From the IMG/VR virus record IMGVR_UViG_2687453582_000002: 23,484 bases of DNA. One strand, 5' to 3'. Positions within the stretch are counted from its first letter, which is position 1. The number at the start of each line of letters is the position of its first letter. A program made the position numbers. This stretch comes from a virus (Duplodnaviria > Heunggongvirae > Uroviricota > Caudoviricetes). Positions 3,001-9,000 of the stretch are shown here, in pieces.

Positions 3001-6000
3001 TTTTGGGTAAATCCAATTAGGTATAGGATTACTCAGTCTTGGACTGGTTATGATTCTTCACTGGAAGGCCATTCTAGATTGCCTGATATCAAATCAGTTA
3101 TTGCGATTGCTGAGATTTTTTCAAAGCGGGATGAACAATTATCGTCAAGAGATATATTTACTACATCTGTGCTTGCTTTACTTATGTGTGCACCGAGTAG
3201 GATATCGGAAATTTTAGCTTTGCCAGCGGATTGTGAAATCACAGAATGTGATGGAAAGGGCATTCAAAGATACGGTTTAAGATTTTTTTCAGCAAAAGGG
3301 TATGAAGGCAATATAAAATGGATTCCAACTTTAATGATACCTGTAGCTAAAAAGGCTATTAGCAGATTAAAAGAATTATCAAGTCAAGCGAGGTTATTGG
3401 CTGCTGAAATTCAAAAGAATTACTCTAATTCAACGAAGGGAACCCTTAAAGAAAATATACCTCCTGATCTCTTTTGGTATGATAGAGAGAAGAAAATCAA
3501 ATATTCTAATGCGCTTTGCTTGTTAACTGAAGGACAGTTAAATCAAAATAAAAAGGAAATGTCAGATAAATTATTCAGACCTACAACGAATTTTTTTAAA
3601 ACTGATATCATTGATTCTGATTATATAAAAGGGTATTTTAATGTTTTTAAAAGACATGGTTATATAAATGAAGATGGTAGCCCATATTTGCTAAGAACAC
3701 ATCAACTAAGGCATCTTCTCAACACATTTGCTCAAATAAATGGTATGGATGAAATGGTATGGATGAATTTAGTATTGCTCGCTGGTCTGGACGTAAGCTT
3801 ATTTCTCAAAATGTTTCTTATGACCACAGATCGCATCTTCAAATGTCTAAAGCAATAAGAGAAAAAAAGTTATCAGTATGTGTTAATGAGCACAGAATAA
3901 AGGATATTCCAGTAGTGGATCTTAATGAGTTTGACTCACTTAGTAGTGGTGCAGTACTTGTATCAAAACATGGCTACTGCAAGCACTCATATGCGTTTAA
4001 GCCGTGTGATAATTATCCAATTAAGAACTCTGGTTTAGATAACGAAACGATTTCAAATATCCACGATAAAATTTTAAAAAGAACACTGTATGATAAAAAT
4101 GATGGGAACATAAATGCTGATAAATGGTATGAATTCCATAAAAAAATAAAAAAAGGAGAATAAATGGCTAAGCATATAAATGGTTATCATGAGAAGAAGA
4201 TTGTAGATGTTATTAACACATGGTCTATAGATGAAAAACTAACCTGGAATGCTTTGTGCGATAGGTTAGTCAGGGTTATTGGGAAAAGACCATCAAGACA
4301 ATCCTTAAGTAGTCATGTAAGGATTGCGGAAAGCTTCAATGTGAAAAAAACCACAATCAAATCTGGTGTAATACACACTGTAAAACCTGCTAATTTAAAA
4401 GTGGCTTCTCAACGAATTAAAAGACTTGAAGCAGAAAATGAAGCTTTGAAGGCATTAAATGAACGCTATTTAGAGCAGTTCAAAGTATGGCTTTATAATG
4501 CTCACCTTAAACAAATAACGATTGAAGAACTTAATAATCCGTTACCTGCAAAATACCTTTAATAAAATTGATAGGTTTTAGCTATTGACATGGTGAAATA
4601 TTATGTTATTTATTTTCTTGTCAGGACGACAAAATTTCACTATTGCAAGGATGCATATTATGGACAAAACAAATATTAACTTAATGGAAAGGTATCTTCT
4701 TCTGCTTGATCGATTCGTTGATAAACTCGCTGAATCAGGTTTCTCAGAGCAACGAATTATCGAACAATCATATCTTTTTTGTGCAGGATTTTATATCAAA
4801 TACCAGAGTGGTATAGAAAAAATGACCTTCTCCAACAGGGAGGTTGTTTTAACCTTTCTGCTACTTTCATATTATAGTCATATAAATAAACTGGATGATG
4901 ATTTGATCAACAAAGAGCGTATGAAGCATGTATGTTCTTCATTGATTAACTTTATAGTCAGTAATGGTAGCCGAACAGAGAAAGTCTATGCTAATGAGAA
5001 AAGGAAATATGAGGCTTCAACTCTAAAAAGAGAATTATCGAAAAAGGATAAAAGGAAAAGATATAGGTTGTAGTGTTTGTATGATTTTCATTAGACTTAC
5101 TTAATCTATAGTCTAAATTTTAATATTAGATTCGTAAATCTATAATTCCATGAATCTAATTAATGCTTAAAAGCATCCTCTAAGATGCTTTTACTGTTAC
5201 CATGCATACATACCCAGAACCTTTAACAAACGATAATAGAGGGGAGTTGTGTATAACAACTCCCTGACCTTACTAAGGTTAGCGATGTTATTCAGCATCA
5301 TTCTGTCAAAGATTTAATTTCTTTGAAAAATACTAATTCTACCCCTTAAGTTAATAACTTCTGCTTGATCGTGTATTTTGGTAAGTTGGAGTACAATTTT
5401 TTGATTGGATCGTCAATAAGAAAAAGCTAGAATCCTTAGAAGGACATAGATTTTCATAGGGTTAAGATATGACGATTGCGAAGGATAGTTCGACTGATGA
5501 AATCATTCATGGAAATGATCTCCGTGGAATGGATGATTTTTACATTAAGACAACGAGTTTTGAATGCCCATACGAGCCTTGTAAAATTAAAGCCACACCT
5601 TGTAGTTTTACTATGAAACATGTTAATCAATCATATTTCAGATATGGCGATAAACATAAGGATGGATGTGGTATTCATGATCCAAGATATAAAAACAATC
5701 ATACTTCAAATGACGAAAGAAAACATAATTCGCCACCTGCTCCGGTTATATCACTTTTAAAAATTGATGTGAAACCAAGAGGTGGTGTTAAAAATGCCAG
5801 AAATATTAAAAATGAAAATCACAAGGATGAAAAAAAAGGTAATGAACATCCTGTATCTTCATCAAGTATTAAGCCAGTCGTTGACTATTACATAAATAAT
5901 AGCAATCATAATGAACAGCTATCAATCCCTCCATATGGCACGCGATCTTATAAAGATACATTTCAACTTATTTTTTACAAAAACAACATACGTTATTACA

Positions 6001-9000
6001 AACCTGCTATTTATTATGGTGTAGCCCAGTCTAATATTCGTCTGCATGAAGATTCAGATAAACATTGTATTACTTTCCTCGCAAGGGATAAGAAAACCCA
6101 AAAACCATTTACGCTTGAAATTGATGTTTCTGACTGGAATAAAAGTCAGAAGGATGTGTTTTGGAAGGAATATGAAAAGCAAAGGAAGGAAGCTGATAGG
6201 TATTATAAGGGGCTTAAAGATAAAAGGAATGCTAAAAAATACTTGACGGTTTTCTTTTTTGGGATGCCGGATGAAAATGATAAGTTTCTATTTAAGACAA
6301 ACCACTTTAAATTAGTATATGTGGCTTTCTTGGGTAAATTTGAAAGCTCATATAATGATAGTAATTATTACATTGAAAATGATCTGTCTGTATCATCATT
6401 GAATGAACAACCCATTTCATTATCTGATATAGACCATAAAAATCATGAATATAATATTGAAACTTCATTAGATTTTAGTTCTCCTTTGCCAGAGCCAGAG
6501 CCAGAGCCAGAGCCAGAGCCAGAGCCAGAGCCAGAGCCAGAGCCAGAGCCAGAGCCAGAGCCAGAGCCAGAGCCAGAGCCAATAAGATCCTCTTTAAAGG
6601 AAAATACTGAGACTGTAGAAATGAACAGTAAAGTTTGGGGGAGGCTGAAAAAGATAATCACTTTCTTTAAAAAGTGATTTATGTTTCTGTAAAAAGCCCG
6701 TAGGTATCAACTGCGGGCTAAATTTTCCCTTGATGCTGGTTTTGTCTTTTATCTAAAAAATGCCAGTCTTCACGTTGCTTGTTCCAGCATTAAAGATGTA
6801 TGTGCTGACTTTTTCGCCTTTGAAAGAAACTGTCAGAGATTTAGTTTGTGAGTCTGCGCCACCTGCAAGCAGTCCCACAACGGGGATGAAAGAGGTTGCT
6901 TTGGACTGGCTGTTATACATAGTGTATGACCATTGTTCTTCACCATCGATCAAAGAACGGCTGTCAGGTTCACCGAACGATGCTAACACGTCCTGTTTTG
7001 TAGTTTTGCCTTTAACAATTTTGGTTTTCACACTTTCCTGCGTCTCATTTTTCAATGACTGGTTGCCTACTGAAGAACAACCTGCCAAGGTCAGAAAAAC
7101 GAATCTATATGAGAGTTTTTTGTACCTGAGACTAAATCGCCCTCCCAATGCCCTAGAGAGCGTCTGTTATCGATATTTCGGGAACGTTCGTGAATTGGTG
7201 TTCCGTTCACTATGTTAATCGTACCTCTTTCGCCTTTGCGGGTATGACGCCTGCCATGGCGAAGGCTATGCGACCGTCGCAGATGCTGTATATTCAGGTG
7301 GTGTAGCGCTTCACGGCTACGAAAGTACAGCGTTTTATAAATTGTCTCAGGTGATATTCGCAGCGTTTTTTGACGTGGTTTTGTTCGCCTTAACCATCCT
7401 GATATTTGCTCTGGAGACCATTTCATCTCCAGCTTTTCCAGAACAAGCTTTCGCAATGGTAAATTTTGATCCAGTAAGCACGGTTTTGGCCTTTTCGCCA
7501 TTCTGTTGGCTCGGTTATTAGCATCAACAGCTTTGTAATAGCGTCTGCCCCGATTACGCTGAACTTCACGTGAGATCGTCGAAGTGAACCGCCCCGGAAA
7601 TCCTGGAGACTAAACTCCCTGAGAAAGAGGTAAACAGGATGACTAAAAATACTCGTTTTTCCCCCGAAGTCCGTCAGCGGGCGATTCGTATGGTTCTGGA
7701 AAGTCAGGATGAATATGACTCACAGTGGGCGGCAATTTGTTCCATTGCCCCAAAGATTGGCTGTACGCCGGAGACTCTGCGTGTCTGGGTTCGCCAGCAT
7801 GAGCGGGATACCGGGGGCGGTGATGGTGGGCTCACCAGCGCTGAACGTCAGCGTCTGAAAGAGCTGGAACGTGAAAATCGTGAACTGCGCCGCAGTAACG
7901 ATATCCTTCGCCAGGCTTCCGCTTATTTTGCGAAGGCGGAGTTCGACCGCCTCTGGAAAAAATGATGCCACTGCTGGATAAGCTGCGTGAGCAGTACGGG
8001 GTCGGACCGGTATGCAGCGAACTGCATATTGCCCCGTCAACGTATTACCATTGTCAGCAACAGCGACATCATCCGGATAAACGCAGTGCCCGTGCGCAGC
8101 ACGACGACTGGCTGAAGAGAGAGATACAGCGCGTATACGATGAAAATCATCAGGTGTACGGTGTGCGTAAAGTCTGGCGTCAGTTGTTACGGGAAGGAAT
8201 CAGGGTGGCCAGATGTACAGTGGCACGTCTCATGGCGGTTATGGGACTTGCCGGTGTTCTCCGGGGTAAAAAGGTCCGTACGACCATCAGCCGGAAAGCC
8301 GTTGCCGCAGGCGACCGCGTAAACCGTCAGTTCGTGGCAGAACGACCTGACCAGCTGTGGGTGGCTGATTTTACTTACGTCAGCACATGGCAGGGCTTCG
8401 TCTATGTGGCGTTTATCATTGATGTGTTTGCCGGATACATCGTGGGGTGGCGGGTCTCATCGTCTATGGAAACGACATTCGTGCTGGATGCGCTGGAGCA
8501 GGCGTTGTGGGCCCGTCGTCCGTCTGGCACCATCCATCACAGCGATAAAGGCTCTCAGTATGTGTCACTGGCCTATACGGAGCGACTAAAAGAAGCCGGA
8601 TTACTGGCATCAACAGGGAGTACAGGCGACTCGTATGACAACGCGATGGCTGAGAGCATCAATGGTCTTTACAAAGCGGAGGTAATACACCGTAAGAGCT
8701 GGAAAAACCGTGCAGAAGTGGAACTGGCCACACTAACGTGGGTGGACTGGTATAACAATCGACGATTGCTGGGAAGGCTGGGCCATACTCCTCCGGCAGA
8801 AGCAGAAAAAGCTTATTATGCTTCCATCGGAAACGATGATCTGGCAGCCTGAGTTCACAGATAAAACACTCTCCAGGAAACCCGGGGCGGTTCAAAGGAC
8901 TGCGATTCAGCGCAGTAGCTATCGCACGAATGCTCATTTTGGCTGACAAACCAGCTCGTATCTCCTCGCGCTCAGACAGTGTCAGGTGAGCTACAGCCCG

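Follow-up and report, generated by a model that had tools for sequence, protein, structure and literature searches.

Three adjoining AT-rich genes in the ssrA–ypjA island of Escherichia coli O157:H7 probably have separate histories: a GinD homolog, an island backbone gene and an orphan Avs8B-like protein

Islands that carry the ginABCD operon, termed GInts, were described by Bardaji et al. in 2017 (PMC5385486) and surveyed by Idola et al. in 2023 (PMC10214605). The operon encodes two catalytic tyrosine recombinases, GinC, which is without catalytic residues, and the small GinD, which has a C-terminal coiled-coil or helix-loop-helix region. The gin operon lies at the 5' end of a GInt, the cargo begins at the ginD stop codon, direct repeats of 10–11 nt flank the island, and its excision as a circle requires all four gin genes (PMC5385486, PMC10214605). 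Among defense systems, PD-lambda-4 has been renamed Avs8; its Avs8A component is a STAND sensor of major capsid proteins. For Avs8B no function is known; Avs8A-mediated defense does not require it, on its own it gives none, and its describers reported it to be similar to nothing (bioRxiv 10.1101/2025.07.02.662641). PD-lambda-4 goes unmentioned in the main text of Vassallo 2022. Here we analyzed a 23,484-nt stretch of DNA filed as the virus record IMGVR_UViG_2687453582_000002 (hereafter the window), in which three open reading frames (ORF1, ORF2 and ORF3) stand downstream of three recombinase-type genes (the trio), and related them to these described systems.

Judged by its sequence, the window is the ssrA–ypjA island of E. 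coli O157:H7: positions 1–7500 are 100% identical to O157:H7 chromosomes, between ypjA and ssrA. In strain FRIK2455 the order is ileY, ypjA, a DUF6387 gene, an AlpA-type helix-turn-helix gene, and then the window start, which is the first recombinase gene. Further rightward, the window holds an IS30 remnant, IS1203, and a prophage remnant with espW and espM2, and it ends in smpB, just beyond ssrA. The G+C content is 0.33–0.35 in the three ORFs and 0.31–0.34 in the trio genes; along the window it is 0.29–0.37 over 1–6500 and at least 0.43 from ~6750. The first-pass annotation had placed three AT-rich plus-strand ORFs (132, 137 and 402 aa) at 4164–6677, which the ORF calls and the G+C content bear out (Table 1), and had read them as one cargo module carried with the trio. 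This second reading did not hold, as ORF1 belongs to the core of the recombinase operon, ORF2 is a backbone gene, and only ORF3 behaves as cargo. We consider it likely that the 2.5-kb stretch consists of three genes with separate histories, inside a decayed ssrA-linked integrative-mobilizable island of O157:H7. RefSeq O157:H7 genomes annotate all three as intact coding sequences (WP_001052051.1 for ORF1, WP_000361847.1 for ORF2 and WP_000150582.1 for ORF3). Searches of the three ORFs against Pfam, NCBIfam and PHROGs gave low-complexity or sub-threshold matches only, and a promoter scan of the AT-rich stretch was uninformative (10 sites versus 12 expected).

For comparison across species, one genome per species was scanned with an ORF1 profile, which gave 73 loci, including Stutzerimonas, Pseudomonas, Acinetobacter and Vibrio. 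None of the three ORFs is missing from every other copy of the trio. The ordered trio followed by ORF1 is present in 64 of the 73 loci, Stutzerimonas and Pseudomonas included; the other nine are without a complete ordered trio, several of them being cut by a contig end. ORF1 is 36–49% identical to its positional counterpart in loci of Pseudomonas, Stutzerimonas and Acinetobacter (48% for Stutzerimonas stutzeri KOS6). Furthermore, its product appears 452 times among the ginC–ginD synteny blocks of Additional file 10 of PMC10214605, a table derived by PSI-BLAST with GinC and GinD of P. stutzeri DSM 4166 as seeds; in the same file, an intact GinC of 543 aa adjoins ORF1 in strain EC4115. These comparisons showed that ORF1 is GinD, which comes fourth in a ginABCD operon of the GInt type, and that it was already catalogued in the literature. 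Because it is listed in the ginC–ginD table and follows the ordered trio in most loci, ORF1 is to be regarded as a core recombination gene, not as cargo. The ORF1 start codon begins on the base right after the ginC stop codon, and the four gin genes are co-oriented with overlapping or abutting ends. ORF1 has a conserved heptad-like stretch at residues 78–110, and the sole match of its profile among PDB sequences was a coiled-coil protein, at a weak E=1.3. By analogy with the Pseudomonas archetype, both excision and integration would require GinD alongside the three recombinase-fold proteins.

The trio itself resembles that of GInts. The O157 locus encodes, in the GInt order, two catalytic recombinases, a third protein in which no catalytic domain is detectable, and a small protein, and homologs of all four genes keep this order in Stutzerimonas and Pseudomonas. 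The ginB product reached 320 bits against NCBIfam NF041502 (integrase_1; cut-off 350), whereas the ginC product matched nothing in Pfam (Phage_integrase included) or among PDB sequences. In ginC, a 14-bp tandem duplication (AAATGGTATGGATG, at about 3738–3751) causes the frameshift in this strain lineage; the duplication is missing in the Pantoea locus L010, and most O157 genomes have an intact ginC that is 14 bp shorter. Because ginC carries this duplication and insertion sequence (IS) elements have replaced the right side of the island, the gin operon in this strain is probably dead.

Other multi-recombinase elements share features with this locus. Strand-biased circularizing integrative elements (SE elements: intA-tfp-intB-srap) and the TnpABC genes of Tn554 likewise combine several recombinases with an auxiliary protein, Srap or TnpC, which is a small coiled-coil protein analogous to GinD. 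The non-catalytic protein is second in SE elements but third in the O157 locus, where the second protein has the Phage_integrase domain. In the published survey, GinD and Srap form separate clusters, the E. coli blocks fall in the GinC/GinD cluster and not in the Tfp/Srap cluster, and E. coli O55:H7 CB9615 was scored SE-negative (PMC10214605). We found the same gin block in CB9615 (NC_013941.1) at 99.6% identity. Membership in the SE group was rejected on the position of the non-catalytic protein and on the separate clusters, and the Gamma-mobile-trio (GmtXYZ) was rejected at 21–22 bits against the NCBIfam GmtY cut-off of 340.

ORF2 stands between the gin cassette and the relaxase module of related islands. 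Its longest ATG frame starts at 4603 (156 aa), but its homologs begin at the position that gives 137–140 aa. The family comprises 343 clusters at 90% identity, all from Enterobacterales, in three subfamilies with a mutual identity of about 25–30% and the same length and basic C-terminal tail. ORF2 adjoins ginD in 23 of the 73 loci. In islands of Klebsiella, Salmonella and E. coli the order is constant: a P4-type integrase in some cases, DUF6387, AlpA, ginABCD and ORF2, then a convergent 221-aa gene, a MobA/VirD2-type relaxase, a small gene and varied defense cargo (for example HxsD/radical-SAM, SMC-like ATPases/MComp1, PIN (PIN_12), patatin, SIR2 and DUF3732). This scaffold was seen in L010, L080–L084 and L099, and upstream of the window in L001:16521-17678.

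An intact island at ypjA in E. coli 23CRST026 locates the boundaries of the gin cassette. The flanks and ORF2 of this island are 85–94% identical to O157, and its gin proteins only 32–48%. DNA homology to O157 is lost at the alpA stop codon and returns at window position 4604, just 5' of ORF2; between these breakpoints there is one short weak DNA match, inside ginD. Since homology breaks at these two positions, ORF2 lies outside the exchangeable gin cassette. Discordance between ORF2 and the gin genes runs in both directions across loci: ORF2 is 70–85% identical with gin at about 40% in L049, L076 and L099 (overall gin range in such loci 30–48%), and 30% identical with gin at about 68% in L014, L017, L018 and L020. 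Across loci, the identity of ORF2 correlates more closely with that of the relaxase and p133 (Spearman 0.78) than with that of the gin genes (0.60–0.71). Together, the loci showed that ORF2 belongs to the conserved backbone, is not part of the exchangeable gin cassette, and co-varies with the downstream relaxase module. As for its role, position, co-variation and composition would be compatible with a small helical DNA-binding or regulatory accessory of mobilization or recombination, which we put forward only tentatively.

Two side observations concern the gin cassettes. Divergent cassettes appear to have been exchanged, with the alpA stop codon at one end and the promoter region of ORF2 at the other. 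In addition, the GInts of the Pseudomonas and Stutzerimonas type have a conserved gene of ~146 aa directly after ginD, with helix-turn-helix-like and coiled-coil-like regions (LEQENAALRAEL); it lies at about 10414–10854 in L024–L028, L030, L036, L053 and L073, resembles a GinD paralog and is unrelated to ORF2.

The locus also differs from the described GInts, and several points count against the reading given above. First, the O157 gin operon is internal: ginA is not at the island edge but has the conserved DUF6387 and alpA genes upstream, and a relaxase module lies 3' in intact relatives. On sequence grounds it could be either an autonomous GInt nested in the island or a module of the larger island. 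The variable DNA here begins after ginD or ORF2, and the gin cassette has apparently been swapped as a unit within a conserved island scaffold. Second, flanking direct repeats (att repeats) were not identified, and ginC is frameshifted in this strain. Third, the function of GinD is extrapolated from Pseudomonas GInts. Fourth, the correlation between ORF2 and the relaxase comes from related sequences and is thus not an independent sign of function, and the only family signals of ORF2 are weak ones to DotU/TssL (E=0.06–0.11). These signals, with E=0.11 against NCBIfam TIGR03349 and E=0.057 for the ORF2 profile against PDB 6y4r_A, together with a VasL/ImpA_N gene 5' of an ORF3 homolog in other E. 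coli strains, would suit a DotU/TssL-like accessory protein of a type VI secretion system (T6SS). This identity is highly improbable and was rejected, as the TIGR03349 score is 12.3 bits against a cut-off of 89.95, only about 55 residues aligned, T6SS genes are absent nearby, ORF2 is unlike the VasL protein, and a Pfam scan of 15 ORF2 family members gave no relevant match.

ORF3 has a different distribution from its two neighbors. It accompanies the trio in only four of the 73 loci. All three ORFs stand beside a trio in the Xenorhabdus, Pantoea and Enterobacter loci L007, L010 and L011; in Pantoea ananatis L005 they do so at 29–49% identity, with ORF3 between ginD and ORF2. Gin operons that are 94–96% identical in DNA to that of O157 (from Brenneria, Klebsiella oxytoca and an Enterobacteriaceae metagenome-assembled genome) are without ORF3; their similarity ends at the ORF2 stop codon (about 5072) and leads straight into the 221-aa gene. 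ORF3 homologs also occur alone in other islands, plasmids and prophages. In other E. coli, a 61%-identical homolog without a trio lies between a NERD/UvrD helicase and QatABCD with a cyclic-oligonucleotide-based antiphage signaling system (CBASS), and in Providencia a homolog adjoins a type I restriction-modification system. The gin–ORF2 block is present in 392, and ORF3 in 314, of 5426 complete E. coli genomes; the ORF3 carriers are O157:H7 and O55:H7 plus 14 others at 95–99% identity. A pattern scan of viral contigs with the close ORF3 alignment returned only a 96% near-identical copy of the same locus, and a search for ORF3 homologs in phage genomes gave zero matches. This distribution across loci showed that ORF3 is the sole true cargo among the three genes.

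The same data bear on the idea that the three ORFs are one co-functional accessory module, for example an anti-phage one, carried by the trio. Such a module would be in keeping with their common orientation and shared AT-richness, and with their joint presence beside the trio in L007, L010, L011 and, in diverged form, L005. However, ORF1 is found with the trio in 64 of the 73 loci and ORF3 in 4, the gene order in L005 is different, and ORF3 homologs occur with neither ORF1 nor ORF2 within 10 kb; moreover, ORF2 goes with the relaxase module and ORF1 is already accounted for as GinD. We regard a single module as very unlikely and three separate genes as the better description. A link to the pathogen-like effectors elsewhere in the window, suggested in the first-pass annotation, was not borne out either: nothing ties the three ORFs to the type III secretion system (T3SS) effectors, which sit in the separate prophage remnant. 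ORF3 as a T3SS effector was rejected on this ground, and because its homologs occur in plant- or insect-associated and environmental genera and on plasmids. In the E. coli defense islands with the 61%-identical homolog, an ImpA_N/VasL-domain gene stands directly 5' of it (L002–L004:8400-9762), intact in L003 (453 aa) and truncated in L002 and L004.

By its sequence relationships, ORF3 is a full-length, divergent, orphan Avs8B homolog. Its one PADLOC match was PD-Lambda-4_B (PDLC03992, E=1.5e-7, 29 bits). A close-family profile searched against 1.84 billion representative proteins recovered 207 clusters, mostly of ~300 aa and aligned end to end, and 58 of 60 sampled superfamily members match PD-Lambda-4_B, with a top score of 625 bits. 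Comparison by hhalign of the ORF3 family with bona fide Avs8B-like proteins gave a probability of 99.9% (E=1.6e-36) over residues 1–291, and a search of ORF3 against PDB sequences returned only proline-rich repeat matches. The earlier statement that none of the three proteins has a recognizable family therefore stands for Pfam, NCBIfam and PHROGs, but not for ORF3, which PADLOC recognizes, or for ORF1, which is a published GinD homolog. We call ORF3 an orphan because the window holds no Avs8A (Mrr nuclease plus STAND NTPase, ~1284 aa): there is no ORF of that size near ORF3 and no PADLOC match in its neighbors. ORF3 and the archetypal Avs8B are both found in ssrA-linked islands near integrase genes. 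What sets ORF3 apart is its additional (PE)n linker and C-terminal helix, and the lack of an Avs8A STAND NTPase beside it. The archetypal Avs8A–Avs8B pair (L100:6118-10915) lies in an ssrA–smpB island beside an RVT gene and a RES-domain gene, with Avs8B as the last gene before an integrase remnant at ssrA–smpB; this is the same chromosomal attachment region as that of the island in the window.

We modeled ORF3 with AlphaFold2. With a 60-sequence alignment, the mean predicted local distance difference test (pLDDT) score was 81 and the predicted template modeling (pTM) score 0.72; a 16-sequence alignment gave a pLDDT of 45 and was unusable. In order, the model has an N-terminal domain (residues 1–70, pLDDT about 90–96), a poorly conserved loop, a second domain (residues ~130–310), a disordered acidic linker and a terminal helix. 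The N-terminal domain contains Cys 33, 38, 45 and 67 and His 63 and 70, of which C33, C38, H63 and C67 show conservation of 90% or more, up to invariance, in the 60-member superfamily alignment; because of this conservation, the cluster is not due to chance. The Cys/His cluster noted in the first-pass annotation is thus real, except that its last motif is C67-x2-H70 and not CxH. In the model, the second domain has the strand order b1-b2-b3-long helix-b4-b5, forming a barrel of five strands in which the helix separates b3 from b4. ORF3 is accordingly predicted to consist of a CCHC zinc domain packed against an oligonucleotide/oligosaccharide-binding (OB) fold, followed by an acidic (PE)n linker of hypervariable length and, at the C-terminus, a cationic amphipathic helix. 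Foldseek searches of the model against PDB and BFVD returned nothing significant. The barrel next to a Cys/His zinc site is a likeness to zinc-associated OB-fold binders of single-stranded DNA (MCM10, RPA70 DBD-C and the MCM N-terminal domain). As in T4 gp32 and single-stranded DNA-binding protein (SSB), the predicted OB domain precedes an acidic flexible tail. No 16-mer in the protein exceeds the hydrophobic moment of the last 16 residues (0.55, a shared maximum), which carry a net charge of +6. This helix resembles the FtsA membrane-targeting sequence (moment 0.57) but is not statistically distinctive, as its score is reached in 11% of shuffles; a PE tract with a similar tail after it is also present in the homologs from Yersinia, Pantoea and Xenorhabdus. 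From the model, the zinc/OB head would bind nucleic acid, probably single-stranded, and the C-terminal tail may tether the head to the inner membrane. That ORF3 acts on incoming or foreign DNA, in defense or counter-defense, is a possibility to which we give slightly less than an even chance.

The (Pro-Glu)15 linker reported near the C-terminus in the first-pass annotation is present at residues 341–370 and is encoded by a perfect repeat (GCCAGA x15.7). It coincides with a known typing locus for MLVA, the multilocus analysis of variable-number tandem repeats: the published TR2 primers (PMC2246123) match exactly at 6184–6201 (plus strand) and 6698–6715 (minus strand), flanking the repeat, and TR2 equals Vhec1 and O157-10 (PMC3768571). 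TR2 varies more than any other O157 MLVA locus, it showed the greatest diversity of the loci in an Irish cattle study, and null alleles exist (PMC2246123, PMC3768571). This variability, the null alleles and the degenerate state of the surrounding island (frameshifted ginC, IS elements) are what would be expected if ORF3 were a decaying, functionless ORF and its Pro-Glu tract a mere slippage-prone microsatellite. We find decay hard to credit, given that ORF3 is intact in 314 E. coli genomes, is 49–99% identical over at least six genera with invariant Cys/His residues, and yields a confident model. Furthermore, the TR2 length differences in 15 of 15 otherwise identical genomes are multiples of 6 bp, implying 15–48 repeats, so that the frame is kept.

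The distant relatives of ORF3 were found in varied contexts. One relative lies directly after a TrwC relaxase with ArdA nearby, and others lie within the transfer region of pVA1-type Vibrio plasmids or adjoin prophage integrases. In a Yersinia ssrA island, a relative is divergent from MobQ and near an AAA-ATPase/DUF4435 gene pair, which we take to be PARIS-like. In P. aeruginosa megaplasmids, an Avs8B-like gene is the neighbor of a multi-integrase module whose cargo is CBASS or dynamin. As a side observation, this module consists of four genes (698 aa, a 654-aa integrase, 169 aa and a 457-aa integrase; L094:8368-14291 and L095:8178-13341), followed by the Avs8B-like gene and the interchangeable CBASS or dynamin-like cargo, and it looks like another type of multi-recombinase element. 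The shared theme of the relatives is an accessory slot of mobile elements near integrases, relaxases and defense genes, which fits a role in conflict and one in DNA handling alike.

One such DNA-handling role would be that of an SSB-like helper of transfer or establishment, which binds the transferred single strand at the membrane and is not a conflict gene. The predicted OB fold, the homologs after the TrwC relaxase, in the pVA1-type transfer region and divergent from MobQ, and the relaxase 1–3 kb away in the O157-type islands all speak for this role. On the other hand, many relatives occupy prophage- or integrase-proximal hot spots and defense islands without a relaxase, and in L010 ORF3 lies 3' of the relaxase operon, a site that is not obviously a leading region, so that we consider the role rather unlikely. 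Returning to the family as a whole, we raise, as a speculative proposal, that Avs8B-like proteins are a widespread, self-standing family of zinc-finger/OB-fold nucleic-acid binders in mobile-element slots, with a function independent of Avs8A, and that the O157 form is membrane-tethered with a tether length tuned by the TR2 repeat. The slots of this family may include GInt-type islands, ssrA islands, P2-like prophages, megaplasmid multi-integrase modules and conjugative plasmids. If true, an Avs8A-independent function would explain why Avs8B is dispensable in Avs8 defense.

Several small features surround ORF2 and ORF3 (Table 1). The hairpin 3' of ORF2 is kept in L007, L010 and L011 and has a variant form in L049 and L076. 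The small hydrophobic ORF that follows has a counterpart in L049 (11088–11165), a homologous 25-aa ORF (MNNNLLKMLRIAIFISVLLYSSSAY) with AGGAGG upstream; a 97-bp segment (5202–5297) with most of this ORF is missing in the Pantoea locus L010. A conserved hydrophobic ORF of 22–25 aa with its ribosome-binding site (RBS) and start in a GC-rich hairpin is reminiscent of a type I toxin or a small membrane peptide. Downstream of ORF3, the gene for a BamE-domain lipoprotein has a G+C content of 0.43 and is 100% identical in L010 and L011 (Pantoea and Enterobacter loci). It travels with ORF3, yet it occurs without ORF3 in L049 and L076 (Pectobacterium). Similarity to the relatives ends at 7105, the start of the IS30 remnant, and the 5' end of the BamE gene abuts this remnant.

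Table 1. Coordinates of the features in the window
Feature	Position	Strand	Basis
ginA-like catalytic tyrosine recombinase	1..1206	+	Pfam Phage_integrase E=2.4e-18; heads ordered trio in 64/73 loci
ginB-like tyrosine recombinase	1196..2521	+	Pfam Phage_integrase E=2.9e-11
ginC-like third operon protein, frameshifted here	2518..4163	+	RefSeq 'DNA-binding protein, frameshifted'
ORF1, GinD homolog, small auxiliary protein of ginABCD	4164..4562	+	132 aa; WP_001052051.1
ORF2, 137-aa backbone protein, basic C-terminal tail, no family	4660..5073	+	position and identity pattern
Terminator-like hairpin AAAAGCATCCTCTAAGATGCTTTT 3' of ORF2	5169..5192	+	read from sequence
Small hydrophobic ORF, GTG start, VYNNSLTLLRLAMLFSIILSKI	5249..5317	+	RBS and start inside hairpin 5242–5264
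ORF3, orphan Avs8B (PD-lambda-4 B)-like protein	5469..6677	+	402 aa; PADLOC, hhalign, AlphaFold2
Cys/His zinc-cluster codons (C33 to H70) of ORF3	5565..5678	+	superfamily conservation
Predicted OB-fold-like domain of ORF3, about residues 130–310	5856..6398	+	AlphaFold2 model
6-bp variable-number tandem repeat encoding (PE)15 (TR2 / Vhec1 / O157-10)	6488..6581	+	TRF (Tandem Repeats Finder); primer matches
Predicted C-terminal cationic amphipathic helix of ORF3, residues 386–401	6624..6671	+	model; hydrophobic moment
BamE-domain lipoprotein gene	6753 to about 7055–7148	-	Pfam BamE E=2e-6; phrog_3135 E=3e-24

The three-gene module of unknown role was thus a false lead, and each gene now has its place in a unit of its own. 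ORF1 belongs to the recombination machinery of the GInts, a known kind of element, and ORF2 recurs as an unnamed backbone gene in a family of Enterobacterales islands that is very common and carries defense cargo. The most discriminating MLVA locus of O157:H7 alters the linker length of ORF3 in frame, which links a typing marker to the architecture of a protein. We propose that ORF3 is a new divergent member of an uncharacterized family with a zinc-plus-OB nucleic-acid-binding architecture; as a prediction from the model, this would give the Avs8B family its first structural hypothesis, a zinc domain with an OB fold.

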